The position numbers and the translations under genes were made by a program. This document shows positions 27,323-60,188 of a DNA stretch of 64,000 bases, in pieces. The DNA comes from a virus. How positions within the stretch are numbered: the first letter of the stretch is position 1; the number at the start of each line of letters is the position of its first letter. The notes beneath the pieces are model-generated. The model saw only the letters and a list, made by a program, of their open reading frames with translations, was not told the DNA's origin and searched no databases. The stretch lies in the IMG/VR virus record IMGVR_UViG_3300033146_004399, positions 32,001 through 96,000 of that record; one strand, 5' to 3'.

Positions 27323-29041
27323 ATGACTATTGAAATTGATAATAAATTTGTAGAATACAATCATGATTTATTATTAGAAGATAAAAATAAAAAACGAAAT
27401 AAATTTACATATGATAACAAATCAATTTCAGTAACAAATAGAATGCAATTTTATTGTTCTAAGTGTGGCAAAACCGTAAATACTATATTTAGATACTATA
27501 ATGATTCTTTTGTAACTTTATGCAAAAATTGTAAAAAAGAATCAACTATGATAAAAAATTATGGTGTAAAATCTAATTTTTCTCGTGAAAAAGTTTTAAA
27601 CAAAATAAAACAAACTAATTTAAAACGATATGGTGTTGAAAATCCTTTTCAGTCTGAAGAAATAAAAGAGAAGATAAAGCAAACTAATTTAAAAAAATAC
27701 GGACATGTTCATGCGATGAACAATGATAATATAAAAAATAAATGTAAAGCAACTCAATTTAAAAATAATAATGGGAAATTTGCTTTTAACAGTAAAAAAC
27801 AAGAATTGACTATGATTAAAAAATATGATGTCAAACATGCTTTACAGAACAAAGAAGTTTGCCAGAAACAAAAAGAAATAATGATTAGCAAATATGGCAA
27901 CAAAAATAATTTTAATAAAATTAAAAAAACAAATTTAAAACGATATGGTGTTGAAAATCAATTTAATAGAAATTCTATAAAACAACGAATAGCAAAACAA
28001 AAAAAAATAAATTTTTTTAAATATTTAAAAAAACGAAATGAAAATATAGTTCCATTGTTTAATATTGAAGAATATACTAATGTTAGTTTAAGCTATAAAT
28101 GGCAATGTAACAAATGTAATACTAAATTTAAAGACAATATAGATGACGGTCATATACCTAGATGTCCTACTTGTTTTCCTAAATACAAATCTAAACCTGA
28201 AAAAGAAATTACTGAGTGGATTAAATCTTTAAACATTTCTAACATCATTGAAAATGACAGATCTATTTTAAGCGGTAAAGAGTTAGACATTTATTTACCT
28301 GATTATAATCTAGCTATTGAATTTAATGGACTTTACTGGCATTCAGAATTAAATGGTAAAGACAGAAATTATCATTTTAATAAAACTATTGAATGTGAGA
28401 AACAAGGTATACAATTGCTTCATATATTTGAAGATGAATGGATCGATAAACAGAATATTATAAAGAATATAATTAAAGTTAAATTAGGTTTAATAGATAA
28501 AAAAATATCTGCTAACGAGTGCACAATAAAAGAAATAGATAATCAAGAAGACTTTTTAAATGTAAACCACGTACAAGGATATATACCTGCTGAAATAAAT
28601 ATAGGTTTATATCATGAAGAAGAATTGGTTGGTCTTCTTACGTTTAGTAAATTTAGATATAATGAAGATTATGACTGGGAAATACTTAGATGTGTTGATA
28701 GATTAGATACACATGTGGTCGGTGGGTTTGCTAAAATATTGAAATATTTTACAAATAAATACAAAGGTAGTATAATAGCATACTCAGACAGAAGATTATG
28801 CAGTGTGAATATATATGAAAATAATGGATTTATGAAATTAAAATTTACCAGGCCAAGGTGTTATTATTTAAATAATAATAATTATTTTATACGCTACAAC
28901 AGACAACAATTTCAAAAACATAAACTAGATACTTTTGATCCTTCGTTAACAGAATGGCAAAATATGCAGTTAAATGGTTGGGATAGAATATGGGATGTTG
29001 GCAACAATATATTTATATATAAAGGAGAACTATATGTCTAA
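27323..29041 (+). mobile_element. Homing-endonuclease-like gene (KYG repeats + Vsr/Hef-like), paralog of 8468 ORF; start at second ATG
   Basis: KELDIYLPDYNLAIEFNGLYWHSE...HIFEDEW; LTEWQNMQLNGWDRIWDVGN almost identical to 8468 C-terminus; SD GAGGA before 27323. Confidence 0.8.
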
Positions 29042-29651
29042 TTATACAATGGATGACTTACTTGATGAATGTTTATATGGTAAAAAGAAAAAAAAGAAAA
29101 AGAAAATCAAAAAAATAATAGAAACAAAAGTAAATGTAAAAGAAATACTAGGTGAAGCTGAGGATAAAGATAAGGCTGAAAATGAAAAAACAGCTGATGA
29201 TGCCTCTACTCTTGATGCTAAAGATGCTACAGCTGAAAAATCGAAAGAAGACGCTGATAAAAAAGAATTAAAAGGTGATTTAGTAATGACTATCTCTTTA
29301 ACTATTTCAAACTCTAATCAAGGTAAGTTAGAAATTGGTGAGGAAGAATACGCGTCTATAACTAATATAAATTCGCTCTTAAGTCTTTACGATATTGATA
29401 CTAAAAATCTTATAGACCCTGAAAAGGCTACAGATACACTTACGTTAACTATTGAGGAACAGGTATCAAAATCAGATAAAAATAATATAGCATTAGTAAT
29501 GCGTTCTAACGTAGATGGAACTCTCTCTATTAATATTCTTATAAATGAAATGGGTCAACCATTTGATAATATAGAAGCAGCAATAGTATATTTTAACCAA
29601 CAATACCAAAATAATATTTTAAATATTATTAATAAAGAAGTCAGAGCTTAG
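29034..29651 (+). CDS. Hypothetical protein (poly-Lys then acidic N-terminal region)
   Basis: SD AAGGAG encoded inside upstream endonuclease; start MSNYTM. Confidence 0.7.
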   Translation: MSNYTMDDLLDECLYGKKKKKKKKIKKIIETKVNVKEILGEAEDKDKAENEKTADDASTLDAKDATAEKSKEDADKKELKGDLVMTISLTISNSNQGKLEIGEEEYASITNINSLLSLYDIDTKNLIDPEKATDTLTLTIEEQVSKSDKNNIALVMRSNVDGTLSINILINEMGQPFDNIEAAIVYFNQQYQNNILNIINKEVRA

Positions 29652-29659
29652 TGTTAAAT

Positions 29660-30003
29660 TACATTATTATTAAAAAAGAAAAAATAAAAGTTAATTCAAT
29701 AGATGGTATAGTTATCAAAATCTTTCAGAATTTCAATGTATTGAATATTGCTAAAATAATAATATTAACATATGGGATGGTTCTTCTATACCATATAGAT
29801 TTGAAAATAAAAAACACATTTATCATATAGATTTCGAAACTAATAAATATTTAATAGAAATTAAAGGTTCACACCATTGGTATAAAGAAAATTTAGCCTT
29901 AGGTAAAATAGAAGCCAAAAATAAAGCAGCTAAAGAATATGCTTCATCTATAAATAAAGAATTTTTTTCTTTTAGATGTTAAAGATTATTCTAAACATCT
30001 ATA
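29660..30003 (+). pseudogene. Relic nuclease domain of a 32825-type endonuclease
   Basis: YQNLSEFQCIEYC*NNNINIWDGSSIPYRFENKKHIYHIDFETNKYLIEIKGSHHWYKENLALGKIEAKNKAAKEYASSINKEF aligns with 32825 C-terminus; in-frame TAA, frameshift near 3' end, N-terminal repeats missing. Confidence 0.85.
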
Positions 30004-30025
30004 AATCATTACAGGAGTAAAACTA

Positions 30026-30679
30026 GTGGCAAATTATTATAATAACGACGAAGTACAAAATTGGGTAGTCTCATATTTAGATTATGAAAAAGAAGAAAGA
30101 AAGACAGAAGAAGGAGCATTATTTTTACGTCAAAAAATAATGATTGAGGTAGGTAAAATAGTAAACGGAATAATATTTAAACATAGATTTACAGTATGGG
30201 AATCATATGATGATTTATATCAAGAAGCTATGGAAGCATGTACTAAAGCATTAGAGAAGTTTAACCCTTTCTTTGTCACCTCTAAAGGTGAATATGCTAC
30301 TACTTTTAACTACTTCTCTTTAACTGCAAAGAGATGTTTGAAGTTTTATACCATGCGTAATCAAAAGAATAGAAATAATTACGCTCTCGAAGATTATTCC
30401 AATACTCTTCAATATACAGAAGAATTGACAGAACACTCTCAAGAAATGATTTCAGAAGAATTTATAAAACATTTAAAGGAAATTTTTATGGAATCAGGAC
30501 ATAAAAAATTTCTACCTCTTATAGATATACTCAAAGAATATTTAGAAAAAATTGGTTCATTTAATAAACGTGATTTCTTCAGATTTTCAAAATCGTATGG
30601 ATGGAGTCCCAACCTTATACGTAAATTTCTTAAAATAATTAAAGATAATAAAGACGCATTTTATGAAGTAAATGTATAA
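30026..30679 (+). CDS. Phage sigma factor, T4 gp55-like (late transcription)
   Basis: N-terminal YYNNDE; region-2-like SYDDLYQEAMEACTKALEKFNP...FNYFSLTAKRCL; GTG start with SD AGGAG. Confidence 0.7.
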   Translation: MANYYNNDEVQNWVVSYLDYEKEERKTEEGALFLRQKIMIEVGKIVNGIIFKHRFTVWESYDDLYQEAMEACTKALEKFNPFFVTSKGEYATTFNYFSLTAKRCLKFYTMRNQKNRNNYALEDYSNTLQYTEELTEHSQEMISEEFIKHLKEIFMESGHKKFLPLIDILKEYLEKIGSFNKRDFFRFSKSYGWSPNLIRKFLKIIKDNKDAFYEVNV

Positions 30680-30711
30680 GATAATTGTATAATCGCGTAA
30701 GGAGTAATATA

Positions 30712-31872
30712 ATGTTTAACGAAAAACCAATCGATCAATTCTTATTTGAATTAGATAACAGATATCCAAATATGACCATAACAGATGACGACTCAGGTAG
30801 TCAAACTATGTTTTCTGCCAATTCTTTTAACGGTGTTAAAAGTGATCTTGGCTCATTTGAGAAAATGATGGCCATTCTAACAGGTCAGGAGAAGTTTGAA
30901 TATGGTCTACTAGATGATAAAAGAAATGTTCGAGTTCTTATTGATCAAATTAAAAATATTAATGACAGAAAAGAAGAATTAAAAAAACAAAATAAAACTG
31001 TTAATGATCAAATTAAGAGTTTAGAAAGTAATGAACATAGAAGTCCAGAAGAAAGTGAAATACTAGATAATCTTAAAAGTAAATATAAAACTTATCAACT
31101 ACAAAAACGTTTGACTCAATTTGGAACTAAAATTAAAGACCTTGATGATATTCTTAAAGATATTGAAGATGGTGTTAACGTCGGTGAAAAGAGAATAGAT
31201 AAGTATGATAGTATTGTTGGTGATCTTGAAGATGCTCTCTTCGATGAAACTTACGTTAAAAGAAATCTCAACTCTCCTAAAGGTGAAATAGGACCTAAAA
31301 ATATACGTCCTAAAGTTATGAATAATTTTCCTATAAAATATATTTCAGATACCGGAATAACATACTTTGGTATAGTTAGACCCCCATCTGGTATAATAAC
31401 CTGGGAAGGTTCAGAAGCAAGACAGGCTTGGTTGGCAGATGAAGATATTAAATCTCTGTTTCGAAGTTTTGAAAATTCAAAACGTTTTTCAAAGAATGAC
31501 ATTCTTAAAATAAGACTTAATTCAGATTATACTGTCGCTAAAGAACAAATTAATGATGCACTTTTATCTATGCGAGCTAAAACTAGTATCAGAAAGATAA
31601 CTGTTAAAGATGACAGTTCGACCATTTTGGCAGTTAAAGATTACATATTTAATGGTATGGAAAATACTGGTCTACATCCAGGTAGAGCAGATAAATTACC
31701 TGGTATTGAAACAAGAAGTAAATCTCTCGGCAGCTTCATGGATAAAATGAAAGATACAACTTCCGATAAAGAAATAAGTGTTGGTATTGACAAAAGAACT
31801 GCATATTCTAAAGGTGTTATTGAAGTAATTGATACAGTAGAATTTTGGCGGTTTATTAGAAGTCTATTCTAA
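30712..31872 (+). CDS. Hypothetical protein with coiled coil; start at ATG 30712
   Basis: SD AAGGAG; AAGATAA at 30678. Confidence 0.75.
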   Translation: MFNEKPIDQFLFELDNRYPNMTITDDDSGSQTMFSANSFNGVKSDLGSFEKMMAILTGQEKFEYGLLDDKRNVRVLIDQIKNINDRKEELKKQNKTVNDQIKSLESNEHRSPEESEILDNLKSKYKTYQLQKRLTQFGTKIKDLDDILKDIEDGVNVGEKRIDKYDSIVGDLEDALFDETYVKRNLNSPKGEIGPKNIRPKVMNNFPIKYISDTGITYFGIVRPPSGIITWEGSEARQAWLADEDIKSLFRSFENSKRFSKNDILKIRLNSDYTVAKEQINDALLSMRAKTSIRKITVKDDSSTILAVKDYIFNGMENTGLHPGRADKLPGIETRSKSLGSFMDKMKDTTSDKEISVGIDKRTAYSKGVIEVIDTVEFWRFIRSLF

Positions 31873-32126
31873 TGTTCTATCCTGTATATGAAAATGACAA
31901 TAAATTAATTGTTGCTATATTTGAATTTACTGAAGATGATATAAATTATGAACCTGCACCGGCAAGTGGTTCCGATTATGATGAATATGTTTATTCAGAT
32001 GATATCAATGCAATAAATTATGTTGGTAATTTTAATGAATGGGGAGATTATTATTTAGAAGATAACGTTAAATGTAATACTTTTTATGATGCTCAAATTA
32101 TGTTAATACAATGGGTTATTAAGTGA
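31872..32126 (+). CDS. Acidic hypothetical protein
   Basis: TAATG coupling. Confidence 0.65.
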   Translation: MFYPVYENDNKLIVAIFEFTEDDINYEPAPASGSDYDEYVYSDDINAINYVGNFNEWGDYYLEDNVKCNTFYDAQIMLIQWVIK

Positions 32127-32143
32127 ATTACCTTAATAGAGTT

Positions 32144-32290
32144 ATGAAACAAGTTAAACTTTCTTCAGAAGAATGGGATCAAATGATTGAAGATTATCAG
32201 AACGGTGAAACTAAAAATATTATGATACTAAAATATAAACTCAATACCATTCAATATAAAACTTTACGTAAACATTTTATAGGACGGTAA
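32144..32290 (+). CDS. 48-aa possible HTH-like protein (not in ORF track)
   Basis: MKQVKLSSEEWDQMIEDYQNGETKNIMILKYKLNTIQYKTLRKHFIGR. Confidence 0.45.
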   Translation: MKQVKLSSEEWDQMIEDYQNGETKNIMILKYKLNTIQYKTLRKHFIGR

Positions 32291-32291
32291 A

Positions 32292-32768
32292 TTAATAAAG
32301 TATATTTTCTGGATGCCACTCAGATACAAAATATGGATAATAATCATCTATATTATCAGTTCCAGCTTGCAATAAAAGTTTATTACTCTTCTTACAATAC
32401 AATTTCAATATATCACAATTCTCATCATTATTTGTCCCAAAATACTTAGCTACAACTTCTATAGGTTGGAAGGTATTTTTAACTTGATAAGTTTCTACAA
32501 TGAGATGACGCATAGAACTTCTATATCCATCACCAGGATCTTCAACAACACTATAAGTAACTCCATCTAATATAAATGAGAACACTTGTGAGTTTTCAAA
32601 ATCATTACTATAATTACTTTTTATTTGTGTTGTATCTCTATCAACGCCTGTGAGAGTAAATTCGCCTACTAAATCATTAAGTTCCATTTTAAGAGTACCA
32701 TTAGATAGAAGACGTTTTGCTATTTCTGAGTGGTTAAACATATTATAAACTATGCTAAAATTGCACAT
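32292..32768 (-). CDS. Hypothetical phage protein
   Basis: 158-aa ORF with normal composition; start uncertain. Confidence 0.7.
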   Translation of the reverse strand: MCNFSIVYNMFNHSEIAKRLLSNGTLKMELNDLVGEFTLTGVDRDTTQIKSNYSNDFENSQVFSFILDGVTYSVVEDPGDGYRSSMRHLIVETYQVKNTFQPIEVVAKYFGTNNDENCDILKLYCKKSNKLLLQAGTDNIDDYYPYFVSEWHPENILY

Positions 32769-32824
32769 TTAAGTAAATTTAAGTAAGATAATTTTATGAA
32801 TGATTTTATAAAGAGCGAGCAACT

Positions 32825-33931
32825 ATGATTAAAGCAATTAAGCTTTATAATTTAAACAAATCAATAATTGTTAATGACATTAAAATAATTGAAACAGAAT
32901 ACAGATTAAAAAAATTTAAAACGTTATTAATCAATAAAGAATATAAACTAATACAAAGAGATAAAATAACATTTATATGTGACGAGTGTAAAAGAGAATT
33001 TGAAGAAAAATTTGCTTTTAATAAAAAGTTTTTTGGATTAAAACAAAATTGTAGGACTTGCGATATATCAAAAACAAAGTTGATAAAATATGGTTCTAAA
33101 AATGGTTTTTCTCAAATAGAAAAAAGTGTTATGAATAAATATGGGGTTAAGAGTGTTTTTCAGTTAGATTTTGTTAAAAAGAAAATTGAAAAAACATTTA
33201 TAAAAAGATATAACGCTAAGAATAATTTTGGACGGTTTGAAGTTAGAAAAAAATTATATAATAAAGATGGCAGTTATAAAAATAATAGAAATAGAGCTAA
33301 AATGACTAATATTAAAAAATATGGCGTCGAAAATGTATCCCAGCTTAAAGAAATAAAAGAAAAAAAGAAAAAAACATGTTTAAAAAATTATGGAGTCGAG
33401 AATATATTTCAAGATAGAATTTTAATGGAAAAACTAATGTTTGCTAAATATGGCGTAAAACACCCGCTTGAATCAAAAATGATAAAAAACAAAATGAAAC
33501 AAAATTTTTTAAAACATTGGGGTGTGGAATATCCTGGTCAACATCCAGAAATTCACAAAAAGCAAATGCATTCTTTTAAAAATAAAACATCTGTTAAAAT
33601 TATAAATAATAATTTATATTACCAAACTAAGCCTGAATTAGAATACATTGTATATTGTCAAAATAATAACATTGATATATATAATGGGCCTTCTGTACCA
33701 TATATGTTTGAAGGTAAAAAACATATTTATCATATAGATTTTGAAACTGATAAATATGTAGTGGAAATTAAAGCATCTCATATATGGTATAAACAAAATC
33801 TAGTTTCGGGTAAGATAGAGGCTAAAAATAAAGCAGCTAAAAAATATGCAACATCTATAAATAAAGAATTTCTCTTTTTATTAGATGTTAAAGATTATAA
33901 AAAATATATGGAGAATTATAATGTCAGATAA
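32825..33931 (+). mobile_element. Homing-endonuclease-like gene (KYG repeats + TnsA-like PD-(D/E)XK)
   Basis: CDEC/CRTC motifs, KYG repeats, HIYHIDFETDKYVVEIK. Confidence 0.75.
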
Positions 33932-34322
33932 AGAACTAGAGGTTGTAGATGAAGCTTCACCAATGGATTTAGCTATTACACAAATGAATGAAATTGCTGC
34001 GGTTGTCGTTGAAAATATAGTTGACGATAGGGATAAAGCTGATGAATTATACGATTTCATGTGTTCAGAAATTGATATTAACGGAGATAAAAATCCTGCA
34101 ACCAGAGAAGCTATGTCTAAAGCCATGGAACTTAAAATGAAAGGGTCCGATCAAATGATTGAACTTCTTAAAGTTAAGGCTAAACTTATTAATCCTAATA
34201 AAGGTTTAAACGTTAACATTTCTTTGGGTAAATTTTCTGATAATAAAGGTGGAAATACAAGTGCTATGATTGATGTAGTTGAAAATATACAATATGAAAT
34301 CGACAATGAAGACAATGATTAA
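33921..34322 (+). CDS. Helical hypothetical protein (weak resemblance to small terminase architecture)
   Basis: Start MSDKELE with SD GGAG inside upstream endonuclease; helical body followed by NVNISLG strand. Confidence 0.6.
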   Translation: MSDKELEVVDEASPMDLAITQMNEIAAVVVENIVDDRDKADELYDFMCSEIDINGDKNPATREAMSKAMELKMKGSDQMIELLKVKAKLINPNKGLNVNISLGKFSDNKGGNTSAMIDVVENIQYEIDNEDND

Positions 34323-35231
34323 GTGGGCAAAAAACTAACAACAGAACAATTTATAGAGAAAGCTAAAACTATACATGGCAATAAATATGATTATTCTCTC
34401 ACTGATTACAAAGGTGCTTTTAAAAAAGTTAAAATAATATGTCCAGAACATGGAATATTTGAACAAATAGCAAATTTACATATTCATAAAACAAAAAAAC
34501 AAATTTGTCCTATATGTACTAAAATTATAAAAAATAAAAAAATGTCTAAAACAACTGAAGAATTTATAAAAGAAGCAAAAGCTATACATGGTAATAAATA
34601 TTATTATTCATTAGTTGATTACAAAAATTCATACACTAAAGTTAAAATAATCTGCCCTGAGCACGGGATATTTAAAATACAACCTAGAGCCTTCATATTT
34701 AATAAACAAAGTTGCTCAAAATGTACAAACTATATTAGGAAAACAACTGAAGAATTTATAAAAGAAGCAGAGGCTATACATGGTAATAAATATAATTACT
34801 CGTTAGTTAAATATAAAGGTGCTAAAATTAAAATTGAAATAATATGTTCAAAACATGGAATCTTTAAACAATTACCAACTGTTCATATTAATGCAAAAAG
34901 TGGATGTCCTATATGTAATGAATCAAAAGGTGAAAAGGCAATAGCTCGGTACTTAGACAATAAAAATATACAATATATAAGAGAATATAAATTTAATGAT
35001 TGTAAAAACATAAAGCCTCTTCCGTTTGATTTTTATCTTCCTAATAAAAATATATTAATAGAATATGATGGAAAACAGCATTATAAACCGATTGAACATT
35101 TTGGTGGAAAAGAAACATTTAAACAACGTAAAATAAATGATGTTATTAAAACTAAATATTGTATAGATAATAATATTAAATTGATAAGAATTAGATATGA
35201 TGATAATATTATAAAGATGATTAACCTTTAA
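34323..35231 (+). mobile_element. Homing-endonuclease-like gene (DUF723-like Zn repeats + Vsr/DUF559-like nuclease)
   Basis: IHGNKYDYS..ICPEHG.F.Q...H....CPIC repeats; LPFDFYLPNKNILIEYDGKQH. Confidence 0.8.
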
Positions 35232-43673: not shown

Positions 43674-44783
43674 TTATATTATAAGCTCCTTTTTTAATAC
43701 GTCTTTAATATTTTCATTATATTTTATTCTAATTAATTTTATATTATTATCTAAACAATATTGATTTTTAATTTTATCATTTTGTTGTATATATTTAAAA
43801 CCTTCTTCTCCGCCAAAAAAATCTATAGGTTCATAATGTTGTTTTCCATCGTATTCTATTAAAAGCTTATCATGTATATAAAAATCAAATGGAAGAGGAA
43901 GAATATTTTTACAGTCATTAAATCTTTTTTGTCTTATATATTGTATATTTTTATTATCTAAATAATGAGCTATTGCTTTTTCACCTTTTGATTCATTGCA
44001 TACCGGGCAACCTGTGTCACCATAAATATGATTTCTTGCTATTTGTTCAAATACTCCATGAATAGGACATATTATTTTAATTTTTTCTCTACCTATTGTA
44101 TATTTAGAAAGAGAGTAGTTATATTTATTACTATGTATTAATTTTGCTTTTTTTATAAATTTTTTTGTATCAATTCTGCTTTTCAATCTATAACATTTAT
44201 CACAACCTGCTCCATTTAAATGCGCAGGCGGGATTTGTTCAAATATTCCATGTTCTGGACATATTATTTTAACCTTGGTATTTGCATTAATATAACTAAC
44301 TAAAGAATAGTTATATTTACTACCATGTATTTGTTTAGCTGTAGTAATAAATTTTTCTTTAGTAAATGATTTTATACTTTTTATATAATTATGTTGACAT
44401 TTAATGCATCCTTTGCCACTTAAATGCGCATCTGGTCTTTGCTCAAATGTTCCGTGGATAGGACATATTATTTTAATTTTAGTTTTATTGTTTATATATT
44501 CAACCAAAGAATAATCATATTTATTGTCATGTTTTTTAGAAGCTTGTTTTATAAAAGTTTCAAGTGTTTTAGTTTTAAATTCTGTTCGTTTTCTTATACC
44601 ACATTTTTTACATCCTCTATTGTGTAAATGATTTTTGGGTGTTTGTGCAAATATACCGTGTTCAGGACATATTATTTTAACTTTAGTTTTATTATTTATA
44701 TATTCTACTAAAGAATAATCATATTTATTATTATGCACAATATTAGCTTCTTCTATAAATTCATTTAGCGACTTTCTCCCCAT
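43674..44783 (-). mobile_element. Homing-endonuclease-like gene (four DUF723-like repeats + Vsr/DUF559-like nuclease)
   Basis: KYDYSLVEYINNKTKVKIICPEHG repeats; LPFDFY..LIEYDGKQH; start MGRKS at 44783. Confidence 0.8.
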
Positions 44784-44878
44784 ACATTTAATTATGCTTT
44801 TATACAATAAAAGCAAGACTATTGGTAATAAATAACTTAAGATAATTAAATATAACGAAATATAAGGAGAAATTAATT

Positions 44879-45775
44879 ATGGCATTTATTGATAAAACTA
44901 AGGCGAATATAGCATATAAAAGAGTATTAGGCAAGATTCATACATCTAACGACAGAGAAGCTTTTAATGAACCTCTCTCTTCAAAATTTTTAATAGCAGC
45001 GCAGGATATATGGGCAGAAGATGTTCCACCTGTACCTGTTAGCGGAGGCACTTCAGTGGTAAGTGATCTTTTAGATTTGAATTTAGTACCGGTTTCGGGT
45101 ACAGATAATACTGGTATTTTCTCTGCTTACATGCTTAAACTAGGTGCTACTGTTCCTGCTTCACTTGTTGGTAAAAAAAACCGGTTGACTGGTGCAGTTT
45201 ATGCTGCATATGATAGAGTTGGGCAAATCATACCTATGGACATGGGGCCTGGTTATCAGCCTAAACCTTATGAAGGCACAACAGCAGTTTTCCCAATGGA
45301 TGCAAGTGATTGGTATATCGATAACTTCTCTGGTATTTTAACTCAAGAAACAGATAATCCCTCTTTCATGAGAGATTATACTCAAGCAAATTCTAAATTT
45401 CAATGTTATGTTTATATTGGTAAAATGATTACCGAAGCTTTTGGCGGTTTGGGTGGTGGTGCAACATATAATTTCTTTGATAAACAAAGTCCACAAGTTT
45501 TAGACGGACCTGGTGGGAATATAATTACAGCAGCTAATGGTATATCTGGGGACCAAGACGGAGTTAATAGAGTTTTTACTCTTAATGCTGCATGCGATTA
45601 CAATTCAGAGCATGTTTATATGAATGGTTCCCTTATGCAAGCTGGTAAAGATTATACTATAGCTGGAAGTGTAATAACTTTTTCAAATTCAGTAGAAATA
45701 TCTACTGGTGTATTCGCAGATAGAACACCCGAACCTACAGACTTAGTACAAGTTTCATACAGAGAAGAAGCTTAA
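44879..45775 (+). CDS. Probable virion structural protein
   Basis: C-terminal VYMNGSLMQAGKDYTIAGSVITF module shared with fibre proteins; SD AAGGAG. Confidence 0.7.
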   Translation: MAFIDKTKANIAYKRVLGKIHTSNDREAFNEPLSSKFLIAAQDIWAEDVPPVPVSGGTSVVSDLLDLNLVPVSGTDNTGIFSAYMLKLGATVPASLVGKKNRLTGAVYAAYDRVGQIIPMDMGPGYQPKPYEGTTAVFPMDASDWYIDNFSGILTQETDNPSFMRDYTQANSKFQCYVYIGKMITEAFGGLGGGATYNFFDKQSPQVLDGPGGNIITAANGISGDQDGVNRVFTLNAACDYNSEHVYMNGSLMQAGKDYTIAGSVITFSNSVEISTGVFADRTPEPTDLVQVSYREEA

Positions 45776-45798: not shown

Positions 45799-45824
45799 GG
45801 CTGGATTTAAATCCAGCTTTTTTT
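45799..45824 (+). terminator. Intrinsic terminator
   Basis: GCTGGAT-ttaa-ATCCAGC followed by T7. Confidence 0.8.
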
Positions 45825-45845
45825 ATTAAAAGCATAATTAAATAT

Positions 45846-46571
45846 ATGGGCAAAATTTTAACAACTGAAGAATTTATAAAAAGAGCTAAAGAGGTGCACA
45901 GTAATAAGTATGATTATTCAAAAACAAAGTATAAATTAGCCAGAGAAAAAATTGATATAATATGCCCAATTCATGGTTCTTTTAAACAACAGCCAAATCA
46001 TCATCTGAAGGGACACGGATGTGAAAAATGTGGTCATGTTAAGACTTCAAGTCATCATACGAAAACTGTTCAATATTTCATAAAAAAAGCTAAAAGAATA
46101 CATAATAATAAATATGATTATTCTTTGGTTGAATACATAAACAATAAAACTAAAGTTAAAATAATATGTCTAAAACATGGTATATTTGTTCAAACACCAG
46201 ATAATCATTATAAAGGTAAGGGTTGCCCAGTTTGTAAAGAGAGTAAAGGTGAAAAGGCTATAGCCCATTATTTAGACAATAAAAACATACAATATATAAG
46301 GGAACACAGATTCGATAATTGTAAAAATATTCAAGCGCTACCATTTGATTTTTATCTTCCTGAATATAATATATTAATAGAGTTTGATGGAATACAGCAT
46401 TTCTCCTCAAATTTTTTTGGTGGAGAAAACGGTTTAAAATATCGAAAACAAAATGATAAAATTAAAAATCAATATTGCATAAATAATAATATTAAGCTAA
46501 TACGGATAAAATATAATGAAGATATAAATTTAATATTAAACACGTTGGTCAGTACGAATACCTGTTTATAA
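45846..46571 (+). mobile_element. Homing-endonuclease-like gene (two DUF723-like repeats + Vsr/DUF559-like nuclease)
   Basis: Same repeat and LPFDFYLPEYNILIEFDGIQH motif. Confidence 0.8.
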
Positions 46572-46678
46572 CACTTCCTTGTTTTTAAAATATTTAAAAT
46601 TCTTTTTAAATAATACCATACTATCTCCGTCTTAATGTATAAGATAATATAAGAAATTAAAATGACAGGAGGCACAAA

Positions 46679-53152: not shown

Positions 53153-53158
53153 TTACAT

Positions 53159-53185
53159 AAAAACCTCCTCCGGGAGGTTTTTTTT
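53159..53185 (+). terminator. Intrinsic terminator
   Basis: AAAAACCTCC-tccg-GGAGGTTTTTTT. Confidence 0.85.
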
Positions 53186-53208
53186 ATACTCTTTCAGCAT
53201 ACTTAATT

Positions 53209-53236
53209 TTGGACAATTTTAATAATATGGTATAAT
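53209..53236 (+). promoter_or_regulatory. Host sigma70-type promoter (extended -10)
   Basis: TTGGACA then TGgTATAAT at 53228-53236. Confidence 0.6.
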
Positions 53237-53286
53237 TAAACATAACAAAGTACAGATGGTGCTTAATAAGAATAAGAGGTGATAAG

Positions 53287-54681
53287 ATGAAAAAAATTAT
53301 AAGTTTAGTTATTTTGGTTCTTTTGGTATTTATGAGTTGTGATATAAACAACTTGGTTGATAACGCTACAGATAATAGTGCTACAGATAATAGTGCTACA
53401 GATAATAGTGCTACAGATAATAGTGCTACAGATGATAGTTATATGATTGAAGGTAGGATTATAAATCTTATTGCAAATTATAGTTCTGCTACATTAGTAT
53501 ATAATTATGAAATAACTTCAAAAAGTTCTTTTAGAGGTATTATTGCTATTGACAATGAAGTAGTTATAGCAGTAAGTGAAATTCCTGGTATTGGTACAGT
53601 GGTTAAAACTGAGAATGGTAAGTATTATTTAGAAGATGTAAATACTTTTAATGAAATTATGCTGCCAGCTGGTACAACTACTTTACATATTTATCAGTTT
53701 AGTAAATATGGTACAGATATTTATTATGGTGTTGATAATAAACTTTATAAAGAACCTTTTAGTGGATTTGATAATAATTTTAATGGTACGGTTATAGTTG
53801 ATGGCCAGATATTTTCTGATACTGGAAACCTTATAACTGAACTTCAATATGTTGTAAGTGATACAGGAGAAGTACGATATAATACAAGAGGAGTTAGTGA
53901 TGGCGTCCACATGGATAGTGTTCAATTGGAATGGGATAGTAATGGAACTGCTACTGTAGACGATGATACTTCTCATTTTAATGATAATAAAACTTCTGTA
54001 AATTTTTCTTATGCATATTGTAATGCTGATGGTAATTTAGTTGCAATGTCAGATAATACAATTTTAAGTTATGATGTTTTGGTAAATGGATCATCTTATA
54101 TTGCTCCATTAGGGTTCAACATTATGTTTTTTGGCCAAAATCAGGAATTAAATAATGTTGCAGTATATAATAGAATTGATTCATCTAACCCATGTGCATG
54201 GACTGGAGATTTTTCTTTTCCACGAGATACTATGTTTCATTCTTATAGAGATCATCAAGTATATTTTGTAAATGATAATGAAAGAAAATATATTGAATTA
54301 AATTCTGACGGTGATGATGTGGTTGTCAAAGTTCATACAACATCTTCAACTGGTATAACGGAAGTGGGAACATTTAACGTTAATTTTGAGACTGTTGATA
54401 CTTATGACAAATTGATTCCTAATATGTGGGTTGATACTAACAATGATGTATACATAATAGTAGGAAATAAACTTTATAAAAATACTATTACAGATGGATA
54501 TGAAAATATAACTGATATGACTGCGTTTTATACTCACGGTTCAAGGCTTGATGCTGTAACTGTACTTCCTCGAGCAAACGTTAATGATCCTGCAACAATT
54601 ATAGTTATGGACGAAGGTGTTAATTGGTATAATACTGACGGTTCTCCTTATACTGGTGCTAATATAGTAGCAGAATATTAA
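53287..54681 (+). CDS. Lipoprotein (464 aa) with DNSAT linker repeats; moron-like
   Basis: MKK + hydrophobic core + lipobox VFMSC; SD GAGGTG. Confidence 0.8.
   Translation: MKKIISLVILVLLVFMSCDINNLVDNATDNSATDNSATDNSATDNSATDDSYMIEGRIINLIANYSSATLVYNYEITSKSSFRGIIAIDNEVVIAVSEIPGIGTVVKTENGKYYLEDVNTFNEIMLPAGTTTLHIYQFSKYGTDIYYGVDNKLYKEPFSGFDNNFNGTVIVDGQIFSDTGNLITELQYVVSDTGEVRYNTRGVSDGVHMDSVQLEWDSNGTATVDDDTSHFNDNKTSVNFSYAYCNADGNLVAMSDNTILSYDVLVNGSSYIAPLGFNIMFFGQNQELNNVAVYNRIDSSNPCAWTGDFSFPRDTMFHSYRDHQVYFVNDNERKYIELNSDGDDVVVKVHTTSSTGITEVGTFNVNFETVDTYDKLIPNMWVDTNNDVYIIVGNKLYKNTITDGYENITDMTAFYTHGSRLDAVTVLPRANVNDPATIIVMDEGVNWYNTDGSPYTGANIVAEY
53359..53439 (+). repeat. 15-bp tandem repeat, 4 perfect copies plus degenerate flanks
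   Basis: GATAATAGTGCTACA at 53371, 53386, 53401, 53416. Confidence 0.95.
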
Positions 54682-54702
54682 ACCTAATAAGATTAAATTT
54701 CA

Positions 54703-54723
54703 GGCTCCCGAAAGGGAGTCTTT
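54703..54723 (+). terminator. Intrinsic terminator
   Basis: GGCTCCC-gaaa-GGGAGTC-TTT. Confidence 0.7.
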
Positions 54724-54741
54724 ACTAGGTAGGGGGGATAT

Positions 54742-55338
54742 GTGAAGAGTGTAATAAAAGTGTTAAAAGATAAAAATCTTAATTTTAAAGTTAAAGAACG
54801 TAAAAATAAAATTATTTTTAAATTTGAGAATAAAAAAGATTTAGATGCTGCAATTATGATTGTTAGAACTCCTCTGAATAGTGGTAATGACGTGCTTGAC
54901 ACACATTGGGAAGAGCATAAACAATTATTTGTTCAGAAATCTAATGCTAAGAAATTAACAATGACATTAATTGACATAGATGTTATAAAGCAAGAACCAA
55001 ATCCAATAGTTAAAAATGACGACGGATCATATACACTTACAGCTACTAAGAATGGAATGGAGAATTTTCTTAAATTAACATTTCAAAATGAATTTGGTAT
55101 TACTTTGAAAAAAGGCGTAGGTAAATTTAAGACTGAAAGAGAAGCAAGTGAAGCATACGATTCTTTAATTAAAGATGATTTTATTCCATCTTGGGGTTAT
55201 ACTTTCAATCTTAAGGGTAGAAAAATTATTTGTGGTATCGCTTTTTTACACGAAATGACATTTTTTGATTCATTAGATGATTCTAGTTATATGGATGAAG
55301 CTGTAAAGAAATATAAAGCTATTGAAATAAATCCTTAA
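54742..55338 (+). CDS. Hypothetical protein
   Basis: GTG start after G-rich SD. Confidence 0.65.
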   Translation: MKSVIKVLKDKNLNFKVKERKNKIIFKFENKKDLDAAIMIVRTPLNSGNDVLDTHWEEHKQLFVQKSNAKKLTMTLIDIDVIKQEPNPIVKNDDGSYTLTATKNGMENFLKLTFQNEFGITLKKGVGKFKTEREASEAYDSLIKDDFIPSWGYTFNLKGRKIICGIAFLHEMTFFDSLDDSSYMDEAVKKYKAIEINP

Positions 55339-55960
55339 GGCTATCGTCCTCTTGCTCTATTTCATCGGCACCTATTATTCTACCATATGTTTTAGCCCCA
55401 TATTCAATTTGGGGCTTTATTAAATTAGTTTTATGGCCTCGTCGAAATATAATATGCATATCCCATGATGTATGTTGTTCTCCTGGTAATGATTTTATTT
55501 TAGAGTCATATGATAGAGATTTATTTTTATTTGTAGCATTTAATGCATACTCTCTTATACTACGAATCATTTGAAGATATACATTATCGTCCATAACAAA
55601 TTTATTTATTTTACTAGGAACGCTTTTCTCGAAACCGTAATTTTTAGCAAAATTTCGTCGTAAACTATCTTCAAATTCTGATAATGATTTAAATTGTTTT
55701 ATACCATTACCAAATATAGAATCTAGTCCTTCGGTTTTAATTATTACGGGTATGTGTACTTTACCCTCTACGTCAATATGGGCAAATTCTATAGTCATTT
55801 CACCTACTTCTCTTCCAGAGTTTATTGTGCGATCTCGTCTTATTTTTTTCTTTCTGTTAATTTCTATTGTTTTTGTATTATTCTTAATACGTTCTTTTCG
55901 TCTAAGATGAAGTTGTTTATCAAATTTATTATTTTCATTCATTACTTGTTTTAATTTCAT
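55319..55960 (-). CDS. Hypothetical basic protein, leaderless start
   Basis: AAGATAA-N4-ATG, no SD. Confidence 0.65.
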   Translation of the reverse strand: MKLKQVMNENNKFDKQLHLRRKERIKNNTKTIEINRKKKIRRDRTINSGREVGEMTIEFAHIDVEGKVHIPVIIKTEGLDSIFGNGIKQFKSLSEFEDSLRRNFAKNYGFEKSVPSKINKFVMDDNVYLQMIRSIREYALNATNKNKSLSYDSKIKSLPGEQHTSWDMHIIFRRGHKTNLIKPQIEYGAKTYGRIIGADEIEQEDDSLKDLFQ

Positions 55961-56027
55961 ACAATTATCTTATACAAAAAGCATATTTATTTATACTTGT
56001 TGTAAGATAAAATCAAAGGAGATATTA

Positions 56028-56684
56028 ATGCCGATAGAAATTGGTCTACTAAATGTAGATATGAATTTTATAAATAAACCTGAAGTTGTAGGAAATCAAT
56101 TGATAAATAATGATTTTATAAGTACAACCGATATAAAAACTATGCTTCATAGAAATTTGAAACCTGAAGCAATAGTAAAAAAAATGAAATTAAAACATAA
56201 ACATAGAGGGGTTATAACCTCATCAACAGAACAAATTCTCCCTTATTATAAAAAACTTATAGATAAGAAAGTACTTATACCAAAGAGATTTTCATTTGTT
56301 AACGTTAGTTCCCATTGTAACATATATTCATATGGTGGTAGTGCAGAATATATGGGTAAAGATGAGATACATGATTACAACCACCATAATGCATTTGTTT
56401 ATCTTTTTAAGAAAGGATATATAGATAAAATAACTTGGGTTGTTCCAGATCACTATACCGAGAATCAAATAGACGGACATTTTAAAGCTATGGATTTTTA
56501 TAAAAAAAATGCTTATCATATTATAAGTATAAATCAAGGATTAAGAATTATAGTACAAGTAATTAAATGGAGTCAATTTTTAACATCTAAATATGAATGG
56601 AAAGCAATAACACTTATTGCAAATCCACACACAGCTAAATATACATCGGAAGATTTACAAGAATTAAAAAAGTTAATTAGTTAG
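56028..56684 (+). CDS. Hypothetical protein, possibly degenerate UPF0489/ureohydrolase-like fold
   Basis: FVNVSSHCNI...NAFVYLFKKGYIDKITWVVP pattern; SD AAGGAG. Confidence 0.45.
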   Translation: MPIEIGLLNVDMNFINKPEVVGNQLINNDFISTTDIKTMLHRNLKPEAIVKKMKLKHKHRGVITSSTEQILPYYKKLIDKKVLIPKRFSFVNVSSHCNIYSYGGSAEYMGKDEIHDYNHHNAFVYLFKKGYIDKITWVVPDHYTENQIDGHFKAMDFYKKNAYHIISINQGLRIIVQVIKWSQFLTSKYEWKAITLIANPHTAKYTSEDLQELKKLIS

Positions 56685-56692
56685 GAGAAAAA

Positions 56693-56956
56693 ATGAACAA
56701 TATTAGAATGGTAAAAGATGAAAAAGGCGATATATATTTAAGTCAAGACGATTTATTATCGATTTTTGCGGATAGGTTAAAACTCTTCCCCGGGGAAATA
56801 GAAGCCCTTAAAACAGAAAAAGAAAGTTCGATAGTTAATTTAGATGGTTCAAGAAATATAATTCCACCAACAGAGAAAGATGTATTAGATTCTATAAGAT
56901 ATGAAGGTATGCAAAAAATGCTCGAGGGTATTATAGCCATGATTGATATTGAATGA
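56693..56956 (+). CDS. Hypothetical protein
   Basis: SD AGGAG. Confidence 0.7.
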   Translation: MNNIRMVKDEKGDIYLSQDDLLSIFADRLKLFPGEIEALKTEKESSIVNLDGSRNIIPPTEKDVLDSIRYEGMQKMLEGIIAMIDIE

Positions 56957-57297
56957 TTAGCGACCCGGCTAGTATAACTGCAGATGTAAGTAATATAGAA
57001 GGCGTAAAGCTTAAAGCTATGTTATACACACACACTAACACTACTGTTTCGGTAGGTATTGCAATTGGTTCTGGTCCTGTTGCCTTGAAAAAAGATTTTA
57101 GAATAAATGAAATAAAAAAAGAAATTCATTCTGTGTCTATAGTTGGATTTAATATAAACGAAGGTATAATTATACAAATAATAGCCGGTAGCTTTGCAGA
57201 TGATACTATGGAAATTATAGAAGAAAGTCTTATTTTAACTAATAAAGAAATAGGATTATTAACATCTGATATAGCTTTAAAATTATTAGTTGAATAG
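56953..57297 (+). CDS. Hypothetical protein
   Basis: ATGA coupling. Confidence 0.65.
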   Translation: MISDPASITADVSNIEGVKLKAMLYTHTNTTVSVGIAIGSGPVALKKDFRINEIKKEIHSVSIVGFNINEGIIIQIIAGSFADDTMEIIEESLILTNKEIGLLTSDIALKLLVE

Positions 57298-57330
57298 CAT
57301 ATTTTTACACTTTTTTACAAGATAAACTAT

Positions 57331-58227
57331 ATGGGAAAAAAACTAACAACGCAAGAATTTATAGAAAAAGTTAAAGCTATTCATGGTAATAGATATGATT
57401 ATTCTTTAGTTAATTATAGAGGTGCACATAAGAAAATAAATATAATATGTCTAAAGCATGGAGTATTTGTACAAACCGCAAATAATCATTACCGCGGAAA
57501 TAATTGTCCTAAATGTTATGCAGATATATTAAAAAATTCACGTAAAGACGACTATAATAGTTTTATATCAAAAGTTAAAAAGCTTAATAATAAATATGAT
57601 TATTCTTTGGTAGAATATGTAGATAGTCAAACTAAAGTTAAAATAATATGCTCTGAACATGGTGTGTTTGAACAAACACCAAATAACCATATAACTAAAA
57701 AACAAGGTTGCCCTATATGCGGTGGAAGTAAAAAGCTAACTACTGATATTTTTATTCAGAGAGCAAAAAAAATACACAATAATAAATATGATTATTCTAA
57801 ATCTTTATATATGGGTATGGAGGTAAAAATTGATATAATATGTTCAAAACATGGAATATTTAAACAAGTTCCAAAACATCATTTAAATAATCATGGGTGC
57901 CCGATATGCAATGAATCTAAAGGCGAAAAAGCTGTGGCAAAATATCTAGATGATAATAATATTAAATATATAAGACAAAAAAGATTTAATGATTGTAGGA
58001 ATAAACACCCGCTATCTTTTGATTTTTATGTTCCAAAAAATAATATTTTAATAGAATATGACGGAATACAACATTTTGAAATAAATGAACATTTTGGCGG
58101 TAAGAAAGGTCTAGAACATATACAAAAAAATGATGGAATAAAAAATAAATATTGCAAAAATAATAATATAAAACTTATCAGAATAAAATATAATGAAAAT
58201 ATCAAAAATAAATTGGAGCTGATATAA
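57331..58227 (+). mobile_element. Homing-endonuclease-like gene (three DUF723-like repeats + Vsr/DUF559-like nuclease), leaderless, coupled to terminase
   Basis: Same repeats; LSFDFYVPKNNILIEYDGIQH; AAGATAA-N5-ATG; TAATG overlap with terminase. Confidence 0.8.
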
Positions 58228-60188
58228 TGGCGCAGTCGGCAATAACTCGAAAACAATATGTACAAAATCTTGTAAAAGAAAAGTATGAGCAGTACGCTTT
58301 AAAAATACCATATAATAAATTAAGATGGTCTGATGATTACATTGATGTTACCTTAAATGATGGTACTGTCGAAGTAGTTGATCGCCTTGTTGAGTTCACG
58401 TTATGCAAGACATCATCGTACTATTTCATTGATAGATATTGTTTTACTAATCATCCTAAACTGGGATTCGTTCCATTTAAATTGCACGACTTTCAAAAGC
58501 AAGCTTTAAAAGACTTCCAGGAACATAATAAAGTTATTTTCAGAAAATCTAGGCAAATTGGTATAAGTGTAATATCTGGTGCTTACGCCCTTTGGCGGGG
58601 CAATTTCTATAAAAATCAAATGATTAAAGTAATCTCCCTCACCAAGGCAGACGCCATAGAATTTAAAGATAAAACTATCGATCTCAACTATGAGAAAATG
58701 CCTGGTTTTCTTAAAACAGCTGCTAAAGCTGGAAGGCTTGGTAGAACTAAATTTGAATTAATAAATGGTTCTCAAATACAGGTACTTCCAAAAAGTAAAA
58801 ATGCTGGTCGTGGTTCTACACCATCACTGGTAATAATCGATGAAGCAGCTTTTAATGAGTGGATGGATGATATATGGAAAGCAATCGAACCGGCATTAGA
58901 TAAAGGTGGAGATATAATTGTAATTTCAACGACAAATGGTGTTGGTAATTGGTATCACTTAACATATACAAGGGCTGAAGAAGAATTGAATGAATTCTAT
59001 CCCATTTTTATCCCTTGGTGGAGATATCCAGACCGTTCTAATCCTTGGCTTCCTATGGTTATGGAAAAAATTAAGAATAAAGAATGGGATGATAATAAAG
59101 TACAAGAATATGTTAAAAAAATGGAAACTGAACAACTATCATACAAGGGTAGTCCTAAAACTGCTCCTTGGTTATGGATAAGAAGAGCTAACGCAAAGTC
59201 AGAGCAAGAATTTAACCAAGAAATCATGGCTCAATTTTTAGGTTCTGGTTCTACCGTTATACCTTACAGAGAAATTGAAAGAATTGATGAGGAATGGGTT
59301 TGTGAACCTAAGTGGAAGGATGTTCTTCCACAAGACGAAAATAATGAAATTATAAAAGGTTTGTGGATTTGGAAGGATAGAAATATAAATTCTATGTATA
59401 TGTTAACATCAGATACTGCGACAGGTCACGGAAAAGATTATTCAACTATGCATGTTATAGATGTCTATCAAAGGGAACAAGTTGCTGAATATAAATGGCA
59501 AGTACCAACAGATGAGATGGGCAGACTAATAAAAAAAGTTGCTACATATTATAATGGTGCGTATGTTCTTATAGAATGTAATCATCCAGGACCTGCAACA
59601 TTTAATGAAGTTTATAAGCATAAAACTGATCCTTATTACAATTGTTACGTTAAAATGAAAAGTGGTAACCCATGGGGTTGGGATACAACTGCCAAAAGTC
59701 GCGTTCTTCTAGTTGAGGACTTTTACAAAGATATTCTTAATCAAACAACAAAAATATATTCATCACGTCTTTCTAACGAAATTAAAACTTTTATCTGGAC
59801 TGAAGGTGGTAAGCCGGAAGCAGCCCGTGGTAATAACGACGACCTTCTTATAGCTTATACATTTTATACTCATTTAGTTGATAATGTTTTTTCAGCTCAA
59901 CCAGCTGCAATACACAGTAGTAAAAAAATTGTAGATTATAATAACATGAACAAATTTGAAGAAGATTGGGAAGAGAGAGAAGACATGTTTATTAACTCCC
60001 ATGGTATGAGTATGAAAGACTGGTATTGGATACAAGGTAAACCTTTACCGAAAGAATATGTTGAATGGAAAAGAGCAGAAGAGGCTGAAGATGGTATTGT
60101 AGATAGAGAAAGTGATATTTCACTTTTAGAAGATATAAATAACAGAAAAAATTTAGGCTTAACTCCGCCACCTTCTTGGATTAAATAA
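58227..60188 (+). CDS. terL: Terminase large subunit (T4 gp17-like)
   Basis: LHDFQK Q-motif, KSRQIGIS Walker A, VIIDEAAF Walker B, ISTTNG coupling motif, RNase H acidic residues SDTATG..DYS and NDDL. Confidence 0.92.
   Translation: MAQSAITRKQYVQNLVKEKYEQYALKIPYNKLRWSDDYIDVTLNDGTVEVVDRLVEFTLCKTSSYYFIDRYCFTNHPKLGFVPFKLHDFQKQALKDFQEHNKVIFRKSRQIGISVISGAYALWRGNFYKNQMIKVISLTKADAIEFKDKTIDLNYEKMPGFLKTAAKAGRLGRTKFELINGSQIQVLPKSKNAGRGSTPSLVIIDEAAFNEWMDDIWKAIEPALDKGGDIIVISTTNGVGNWYHLTYTRAEEELNEFYPIFIPWWRYPDRSNPWLPMVMEKIKNKEWDDNKVQEYVKKMETEQLSYKGSPKTAPWLWIRRANAKSEQEFNQEIMAQFLGSGSTVIPYREIERIDEEWVCEPKWKDVLPQDENNEIIKGLWIWKDRNINSMYMLTSDTATGHGKDYSTMHVIDVYQREQVAEYKWQVPTDEMGRLIKKVATYYNGAYVLIECNHPGPATFNEVYKHKTDPYYNCYVKMKSGNPWGWDTTAKSRVLLVEDFYKDILNQTTKIYSSRLSNEIKTFIWTEGGKPEAARGNNDDLLIAYTFYTHLVDNVFSAQPAAIHSSKKIVDYNNMNKFEEDWEEREDMFINSHGMSMKDWYWIQGKPLPKEYVEWKRAEEAEDGIVDRESDISLLEDINNRKNLGLTPPPSWIK

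Follow-up and report, generated by a model that had tools for sequence, protein, structure and literature searches.

Shine-Dalgarno sequences within the 3' ends of endonuclease genes of a huge phage: a real pattern that probably reflects ordinary gene packing

In operons whose genes overlap or abut, the Shine-Dalgarno sequence (SD) of a gene can lie in the 3' end of the gene upstream, with translational coupling between the two (reviewed in PMC12548453; overlap statistics in PMC6728339). For endonuclease genes, Dassa et al. (2009) described 15 loci at which the 3' end of the endonuclease gene overlaps a downstream open reading frame (ORF) by 6-69 bp, and proposed that the start of the downstream ORF is created by the invading element, to the benefit of invasion (PMC2677866). 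Edgell, Gibb and Belfort (2010) reported that promoters of essential genes are embedded in the T4 seg and mob ORFs and argued that this favours retention (PMC2988022). We report here on a window of 64,000 nucleotides, bases 32001-96000 of the 179,366-base IMG/VR phage record IMGVR_UViG_3300033146_004399 (estimated completeness 63%), in which five putative free-standing endonuclease genes carry within their last codons the SD of the gene that follows. The five junctions, at 29034, 33921, 58227, 15157 (minus strand) and 20235 (minus strand), are called J1 to J5. An earlier note on this DNA had taken them for a special parasitic strategy, in which the element, placed between promoter and essential gene, supplies that gene's translation signal, making precise loss costly. 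We find that the pattern is real but ordinary and that the parasitic interpretation holds only descriptively, at some of the junctions. The retention idea is itself already known, being a translation-level restatement of the proposals in PMC2988022 and PMC2677866.

Generic compact operons offer the closest likeness. The phage shares with them ATGA or TAATG junctions and overlaps of 8-17 nt, an SD located 5-13 nt before the start within the upstream ORF, and purine-rich terminal codons; its non-mobile gene pairs have embedded SDs equally frequently, and there is no difference of substance beyond the fact that the upstream ORF is here a mobile endonuclease gene. The gene-fracturing endonucleases (PMC2677866) and Aeh1 mobE in nrdA resemble our junctions in that the endonuclease 3' end overlaps a downstream ORF, the element is proposed to create a start, and late-promoter-like motifs stand upstream of the endonuclease gene. 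They differ in that here there are no split inteins and no gene in two functional halves: only 13 codons are duplicated, at J4, and the other junctions lie between genes. As with T4 seg and mob, free-standing endonuclease genes stand at the boundaries of conserved genes and hold expression signals of the next gene inside their ORFs, although the embedded signals are promoters in T4 and SDs here.

Endonuclease junctions compared with ordinary gene pairs

All five upstream ORFs match the homing-endonuclease families DUF7487, phrog_3339, phrog_559 and phrog_12131 (E 1e-17 to 1e-121). The DUF7487 score exceeds its Pfam cut-off and a DUF4379 zinc finger is matched as well; named from the annotation of the phrog library, the ORFs are putative homing or HNH endonucleases. 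The five motifs cited in the earlier note are all present, in the frame it gave, within the last 4-12 codons of the upstream ORF, and each lies 5-8 nt ahead of the downstream start. At J1 the endonuclease gene ends AAA GGA GAA CTA TAT GTC TAA, overlapping the gene at ATG 29034 by 8 nt, and its tail K-G-E-L-Y-V-stop contains that gene's SD, AAAGGAGAA (29021-29029). The sequence at J2 is ATG GAG AAT TAT AAT GTC AGA TAA (overlap 11 nt), with GGAG (33910-33913) in the non-conserved tail Y-M-E-N-Y-N-V-R serving ATG 33921. At J3, TTG GAG CTG ATA TAATG encodes the tail K-L-E-L-I-stop, which contains TTGGAG (58213-58218), and TAATG overlaps the terminase start (ATG 58227) by 1 nt. On the minus strand, J4 reads GAG GTG TTA AAT GCC ... 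TGA with an overlap of 17 nt; GAGGTG (15167-15162) lies in the tail L-E-V-L-N ahead of ATG 15157. J5 reads GAG GAG GTA CTA CTA TCC ... TAG, and its tail E-E-V-L-L... contains GAGGAGG (20249-20243), 7 nt ahead of an ATC codon at 20235.

The starts of the five downstream genes, as the earlier note had placed them, are supported by N-terminal homology to relatives. The closest retrievable relatives of the phage that carries this terminase are uncultured huge phages, among them G001 (388 kb, 98% complete, terminase identity 60%) and G002 (112 kb). The 1552-aa protein behind J4 and the terminase align with their homologues from the first residues, and the N-terminus of g059, downstream of J1, aligns as MSNYTMDDLLDECL with MPDITMEDFIDECL in G001 and MNENMEDFVDEVL in G002. 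For g066, downstream of J2, the N-terminal length agrees with a start at 33921 and not at 33885. At J5 the open frame of g040 extends from 20253, and the first ATG, GTG or TTG in it comes at 20127; a tblastn comparison with G001 (32% identity, residues 4-329) aligns the ATC at 20233-20235 with the methionine of the homologue, IPVLPSIGEAIKLG against MPIIPQVSQSIKMG, so that ATC stands opposite ATG. We conclude that the five motifs are the real SDs of the five downstream genes. Two other accounts were tried and rejected. Programmed frameshifting, or a fusion of the endonuclease with g040, was set aside at J5 on account of the ATC at the relative's start codon and the strong SD 7 nt upstream of it, and chance was set aside in general, an SD-like match being found in 11% of random 20-nt windows as against five of five here, a contrast that establishes no more than that the SDs are real.

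Whether the pattern belongs to endonuclease genes was decided by comparison with all other neighbouring genes. Genes were called by ourselves over the whole record, with a codon-usage model and one start rule for every gene, which gave 260 genes. GC content ranges from 25-39%, and the standard genetic code fits, the stops of 60 long ORFs being 44 TAA, 10 TGA and 6 TAG. SDs were scored as the duplex energy with the 3' end of 16S rRNA, with a cut-off of dG -4.4 or lower, and an SD was counted as embedded when it reached this cut-off with at least 4 nt inside the upstream ORF. SD use is strong by this measure (68% of genes, against 11% of random positions). The 229 co-directional neighbour pairs comprise 219 with a non-endonuclease gene upstream and 10 with an endonuclease gene upstream; in the former the median gap is 2 nt, and 90 of the 219 overlap. 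Of the 219, 79 (36%) have an embedded SD, as do 5 of the 10 endonuclease pairs (Fisher p 0.50), or 6 of 10 when the ATC case is counted (Fisher p 0.18). Across eleven rule sets (each of three start rules with each of three SD criteria, and two further runs with the ATC case), p ranged from 0.18 to 1.0, and restriction to longer genes gave the same null outcome. Half of the endonuclease-to-gene pairs in the record have their SD outside the endonuclease ORF. What sets embedding is the gap: among the non-endonuclease pairs, gaps of 5 nt or less go with embedding in 78 of 78 SDs and gaps above 12 nt with embedding in none, so that tight spacing by itself brings the SD into the upstream ORF; at gaps of 12 nt or less, 79 of the 129 pairs (61%) have an embedded SD. 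Non-mobile pairs are thus about as rich in embedded SDs as endonuclease pairs, the outcome that the earlier note had itself named in advance as the sign of generic compaction, and its claim of an endonuclease-specific pattern does not hold.

The same applies to codon choice. GAA does dominate in this phage, as had been claimed (3119 GAA against 618 GAG), and GAG is used at J2 to J5; J1 itself has GGA GAA. The bias towards GAG near gene ends runs through the whole genome. Among non-endonuclease genes that stand upstream in close pairs, the final six codons have GAG for 34 of 85 glutamates (40%, with 51 GAA), compared with 566 of 3588 (16%, with 3022 GAA) in gene bodies, a terminal odds ratio of 3.6 (p 1e-7).

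Other phages carrying the same endonuclease family gave a similar picture. From 80 short-type family loci in IMG/VR we obtained 60 unique junctions, and 7 of the 60 have an SD-like tail (dG -4.4 or lower); in 5 of the 7 a start codon lies at the stop or a few nt away. Most of the remaining tails have GAA or no glutamate at that position. Against controls within the same loci, embedded SDs were found in 4 of 36 endonuclease pairs and 14 of 235 other pairs (p 0.27), and among close pairs in 4 of 17 and 14 of 93 (p 0.47), with no enrichment at endonuclease junctions; the outcome was unchanged when only loci that use SDs were kept.

The features discussed are collected in Table 1, together with endonuclease genes that are counter-examples. 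In the record there are 14 endonuclease genes in three length classes, 10 of them within the window, and 4 of these 10 are without any co-directional downstream gene. The 2157-aa gene behind g082 has both its SD and its promoter-like TAAGATAA motif outside the endonuclease ORF.

Table 1. Positions of the junction genes, their neighbours and the comparison genes in the window
Feature	Position	Strand	Remarks
g057, non-mobile neighbour displaced by gene A	26977..27321	+	44-46% identity to the G001 and G002 homologues
Putative endonuclease gene A, 572 aa, long type (J1)	27323..29041	+	phrog_3339 (E 5e-121), DUF7487
g059, 205 aa, downstream of gene A	29034..29651	+	start backed by homology; SD dG -8.7
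Putative endonuclease gene C, 368 aa (J2)	32825..33931	+	DUF7487
g066, conserved, 133 aa, downstream of gene C	33921..34322	+	63-67% identity to the G001 and G002 homologues
Putative endonuclease gene E, 298 aa, short type (J3)	57331..58227	+	phrog_559 (E 4e-85), DUF4379
Large terminase subunit	58227..60188	+	PF03237, phrog_2
Putative endonuclease gene g037, 362 aa (J4)	15141..16229	-	SD for ATG 15157 in tail
1552-aa gene downstream of g037	10499..15157	-	
Putative endonuclease gene g041, 392 aa (J5)	20214..21392	-	DUF7487 (E 2e-36)
g040, conserved, about 324 aa	19261..20235	-	ATC where the relative has ATG
Counter-example: long-type endonuclease gene	8468..10060	+	convergent with neighbour; tail without SD
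Counter-example: endonuclease gene	34323-35231	+	convergent with neighbour; tail without SD
Counter-example: endonuclease-like g082	45846..46571	+	107 nt before the 2157-aa gene
Paralogue g039	18128..19231	-	no co-directional downstream gene
Paralogue g080	43674..44783	-	convergent with neighbour; AAG GAG in K-E-L-I-I tail

The five sites in relatives and the origin of the SD codons

The terminase is of the T4 type, and 123 homologues of it were found, with a top identity of 74% (P0002, P0005 and P0006 at 71-74%). Exact-pattern scans of viral contigs with the terminase, the 1552-aa protein, g040 and a 217-aa protein as queries found no close relative, one metagenome scan returned relatives at 53-60% identity only, and GenBank phages gave no nucleotide match and protein matches all below 30% identity. 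Related strains are present in marine-sediment and hydrothermal-vent metagenomes. The presence of the endonuclease genes is patchy at syntenic sites: 4 of the 5 sites are empty in G001, and the downstream genes of the window are full length when compared with their G001 homologues.

At J1 neither G001 nor G002 has an endonuclease gene between the homologues of g057 and g059. In G001 the g059 homologue overlaps the non-mobile g057 homologue likewise by 8 nt, and the end of the latter, K-G-D-Q-N-A-stop (AAG GGG GAT ...), holds the g059 homologue's SD and matches the K-G-E-L-Y-V-stop of gene A in frame and in the position of the stop relative to the ATG. In G002 the g057 homologue ends G-T-K-E-stop (AAG GAG TAA), 8 nt before the ATG, and again holds the SD of the g059 homologue. 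The tail of gene A runs 4-6 residues past the region that is conserved with its paralogues at 8468-10060 and G000:142622-144205, while g057 has a shorter C-terminus than in G002 and its end now carries gene A's own SD (TGAGGA). On the simplest reading, the insert may have entered the terminal part of g057, with an SD already in place downstream of it. The SD codons at J1 look like the old 3' end of the displaced g057, so that excising the insert would leave the SD intact.

At J4 the start of the 1552-aa homologue in G001 overlaps (TAATG) an 86-aa gene that is not an endonuclease gene and ends TTT GGA GAA AAT AA, an embedded SD. At J3 the terminase gene has no endonuclease gene upstream in six relatives, and in G001 it shares 4 nt with an ordinary 132-aa gene and has no better SD-like sequence than a weak GAAGAA. 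At the J5 site, the upstream genes in G001 are small and ordinary, and GGGAG precedes the ATG by 4 nt. The comparison with insertion-free relatives that the earlier note had called for thus places the SD within an ordinary upstream gene at J1 and J4, whereas at J3 it finds a 4-nt overlap with a weak SD only. J2 is the only one of the five sites that is occupied in G001, by an orthologous endonuclease gene (51% identity) in the same place and orientation with a different tail (GGGG, 1-nt overlap). In G002 an endonuclease gene of another type is inverted at this site, and its 3' end cannot supply the SD. This inverted gene is of the long type, contains an in-frame TAG and lies directly upstream of the g066 homologue (locus L026, G002:68451-71780, minus strand, about 2-1414). 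The J2 site may be an insertion hot spot, with co-oriented genes here and in G001 and an inverted one in G002.

Contigs assembled from four DNA runs over 14900-34899 were fragmentary and came from related strains. J2 is bridged by contigs X1 record 7 and X2 record 15, and J5 by X3 record 17 (20194-20805), from which it follows that related strains have the arrangements at J2 and J5 too. Contig joints that leave out an endonuclease gene were all too poorly flanked, with untrustworthy sides of 20-32 nt.

The claim that the cassette itself supplies the SD fares differently from site to site. At J3, J4 and J5 the SD does lie in C-terminal codons of the endonuclease family, whereas at J1 it looks inherited from the host. 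Paralogues have tails homologous to the K-L-E-L-I of J3, namely (R)LKELI and LKKELII, and the tails L-E-V-L-N at J4 and E-E-V-L-L at J5 are homologous to K-E-L-L-N of g039. The DNA homology of g037 and g039 extends up to and including TTAAATG, and the g039 tail reads AAG GAA CTA TTA AAT GGA TAA, with GAA where g037 and g041 have GAG. Both g080 and g210 retain an SD-like AAG GAG without a gene to serve.

The endonuclease 3' ends overlap the downstream genes by 1-17 nt at J1-J4, and at J4 the overlap is accompanied by a direct repeat. There the first 13 codons of g037, MPTIDKRKFELKQ, duplicate those of the 1552-aa gene, MPTINERKFELKQ, as a recoded 39-nt direct duplication (16191-16229 and 15119-15157, both on the minus strand), and paralogues of g037 begin MIK... 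instead of with these host-derived codons. From the duplicated codons it follows that the cassette has the original start region of the 1552-aa gene on one side and a rebuilt start on the other. That the downstream start came with the cassette is, from sequence comparison, plausible at J4 and contradicted at J1. At J5 no stranded old start of g040 was seen, the g041 N-terminus MIKYF being one native to endonucleases of its family. The 324-aa and 1552-aa genes are separated here by about 4.1 kb, in which lie two endonuclease genes and, on the plus strand, a 512-aa gene (16386-17924) without a family match; the distance between their homologues in G001 is about 540 nt.

Ordinary packing and its alternatives

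We think it likely that the SDs fall within the endonuclease ORFs through ordinary gene packing, with no additional function in holding the downstream gene hostage. Co-directional genes in this phage mostly abut or overlap, so that an SD placed 5-13 nt before a start has to fall in the ORF upstream, and the need for it would favour G-rich codons (GAG, GGA, AGG) at the end of the upstream gene. The same packing rule would apply to free-standing endonuclease genes that took up places at gene boundaries, and they could have come to obey it by more than one route. At J1 the insert would have arrived upstream of an existing SD, the endonuclease ORF reading through its neighbour's old last codons and stop; at J3, J4 and J5 the SD lies in the endonuclease family's own C-terminal codons, with a rebuilt and duplicated host start in addition at J4. 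Selection would need only to maintain translation of the downstream gene, and the endonuclease genes that persist would be those that left downstream initiation intact, whether because they inserted upstream of it or because their terminal codons were suitable.

Several observations weigh against ordinary packing as a full account. Close endonuclease pairs (gap of 12 nt or less) all have an SD, 5 of 5 or 6 of 6 with the ATC case, compared with 61% of the others, a difference that amounts to a trend (p 0.16 and 0.08) with low power at this sample size. Counted in the window only, endonuclease pairs have nominally more embedded SDs than other pairs, 4 of 6 against 11 of 45 (p 0.054), or 5 of 6 with the ATC case (p 0.009), and the record outside the window, with 1 of 4 endonuclease pairs and 68 of 174 others, does not replicate it. 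The otherwise rare GAG occurs in the K-E-L-I tail of three old paralogues (about 55% amino acid identity), two of which have AAG GAG and two of which serve no gene. Moreover, our reading of J1 rests on distant relatives, whose g059 homologues are 27-34% identical by tblastn, and the gene calls are home-made, with starts picked partly by SD, under the same rule for both classes.

Part of this would be accounted for if the genes behind poorly translated endonuclease genes lacked reinitiation coupling and needed a strong SD of their own. The 14 endonuclease genes have weaker SDs of their own than other genes do (mean dG -3.7 and -5.8, respectively; Mann-Whitney p 0.02), and fewer of them have one at all (43% compared with 68%); many ordinary ATGA or TAATG pairs manage without any SD, while the five or six close endonuclease pairs have one without exception (100% against 61%), and weak or absent initiation regions are documented for free-standing endonuclease genes of T4 (PMC2988022). 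We nevertheless regard such compensation as unlikely, the trend at close pairs not being significant (p 0.08-0.16) and not being seen among the 17 endonuclease and 93 other close pairs of other phages. A possible but doubtful alternative is that the cassettes carry a portable start region, a selected 3' SD and sometimes a start codon, which would aid invasion more than retention, as in the model of Dassa et al. 2009 (PMC2677866). It would fit J4, where the native MIK... N-terminus has been replaced by the host's 13 codons and the second copy stands behind the SD in the endonuclease tail; the continuation of g037-g039 homology through the SD-like codons to TTAAATG; the use of GAG in g037 and g041, which have a gene to serve, as opposed to GAA in g039, which has none; the retention of (A)AG GAG in the short-type tails of three paralogues; and further family members with a tail SD and an overlapping ATG (L030, L044, L068 and L085). 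Yet SD-like tails are confined to 7 of the 60 unique family junctions elsewhere, most others having GAA or no glutamate there, the SD at J1 appears host-inherited, the two orthologous endonuclease genes at J2 have different tails, and there is no enrichment over non-mobile pairs. The two ideas could be combined: cassettes of this huge-phage lineage would carry a selected portable start, and genes behind weakly translated endonucleases would depend on strong SDs. If true, this would explain the presence of SDs at 100% of close junctions and GAG in three paralogues, as well as the rebuilt starts at 15157 and 20235, and we judge it decidedly unlikely.

The hostage or addiction reading, in which an endonuclease gene placed between promoter and essential gene owns the SD of that gene so that its deletion is lethal and it is retained, we consider very improbable. 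Deletion of any of the five whole ORFs would indeed remove the downstream SD, and in 4 of 5 cases the start codon too; TAAGATAA promoter-like motifs precede 4 of the 5 endonuclease genes and none lies between an endonuclease gene and its downstream gene; and the same logic has been proposed for promoters embedded in T4 segG, segA, segE, mobB and mobC (PMC2988022). Against it, the property is shared by all ordinary genes that are upstream in an overlapping pair, losing the insert precisely (as distinct from the ORF) would leave the SD at J1, and recombination between the 39-nt duplicate copies at J4 could restore an intact gene. Orientation is free, as the inverted endonuclease gene at the J2 site in G002 illustrates, 4 of 5 sites are empty in G001 with a patchy distribution among relatives, and the regions around the five endonuclease 3' ends contain no promoter motif. 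A special parasitic strategy with costly precise loss, as first proposed, is therefore not borne out: its own test pointed to generic compaction, orientation is not constrained, and the SD at J1 would survive excision.

Had endonuclease genes owned their neighbours' SDs for the sake of retention, this would have been a new layer of selfish-element biology with relevance to the pruning of phage genomes. Under ordinary packing, any gene of this phage that directly precedes another carries the SD of its successor, whether it is mobile or not. Because a start-to-stop deletion of an endonuclease ORF would remove the SD of the next gene, and often its start, deletions should follow the true boundaries of the insert, which can be inferred from the empty sites of relatives.

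Endonuclease genes and the promoter-like motif

The endonuclease ORFs have their own starts and stops and lie in neither an intron nor an intein. A domain search found no intein domains in the ORFs that flank them, and a Rfam scan of the window gave no family, hence no group I intron, at the gathering score. Intron splicing was rejected as an explanation on this result. Sequence and profile searches of the PDB with the endonuclease proteins returned no meaningful match, an NCBIfam search nothing and a GIY-YIG search zero matches; a search with HNH_3 gave a single match, below its cut-off and outside the window. An AlphaFold model of endonuclease E, built from a 4-sequence alignment, has pLDDT values of 39-70 in the nuclease domain and a poor C-terminal domain. 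Several terminases with 54-75% identity to that of this phage (P0003, P0004, P0007, P0034, P0035 and P0043) reach about 1000 aa and contain intein and LAGLIDADG domains (PF14890, PF14528). The presence of intein-bearing terminases in the clade implies that the terminase gene is targeted by inteins elsewhere and by an upstream free-standing endonuclease gene here.

The TAAGATAA-type motif, which we infer to be a promoter of the phage, stands directly upstream of 4 of the 5 junction endonuclease genes and is enriched upstream of endonuclease genes in general (7 of 14, compared with 40 of 246 other genes; p 0.005). No such motif occurs in the last 200 nt of 4 of the 5 endonuclease ORFs, and g041 has one weak match at -200. 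Of the proposal that the element sits between promoter and gene, what stands is the putative promoter motif upstream of four of the five and, at J4, the position of the cassette between the old and the rebuilt start. In the form T(A/G)TAAGATAAT, the promoter-like motif occurs within 60 nt upstream of 47 of the 260 genes and falls into two position classes. The first places it about 23-40 nt upstream of the ATG, with a normal SD coming after it; in the second, which lacks an SD, about 5-8 nt separate its end from the ATG, in the manner of a leaderless or near-leaderless mRNA (for example tataagataactatATG). Examples in the window are at 19232-19248 (minus), 57314-57330 (plus), 55961-55977 (minus) and 46640-46660 (plus).

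Finally, the divergent endonuclease genes g080 and g082, the latter N-terminally shorter, share a near-identical 23-nt leader, (a/t)taaaagcataattaaat(g/a)tATG, which has no SD (44784-44806, minus; 45823-45845, plus). The two genes flank a 298-aa gene at 44879-45775.

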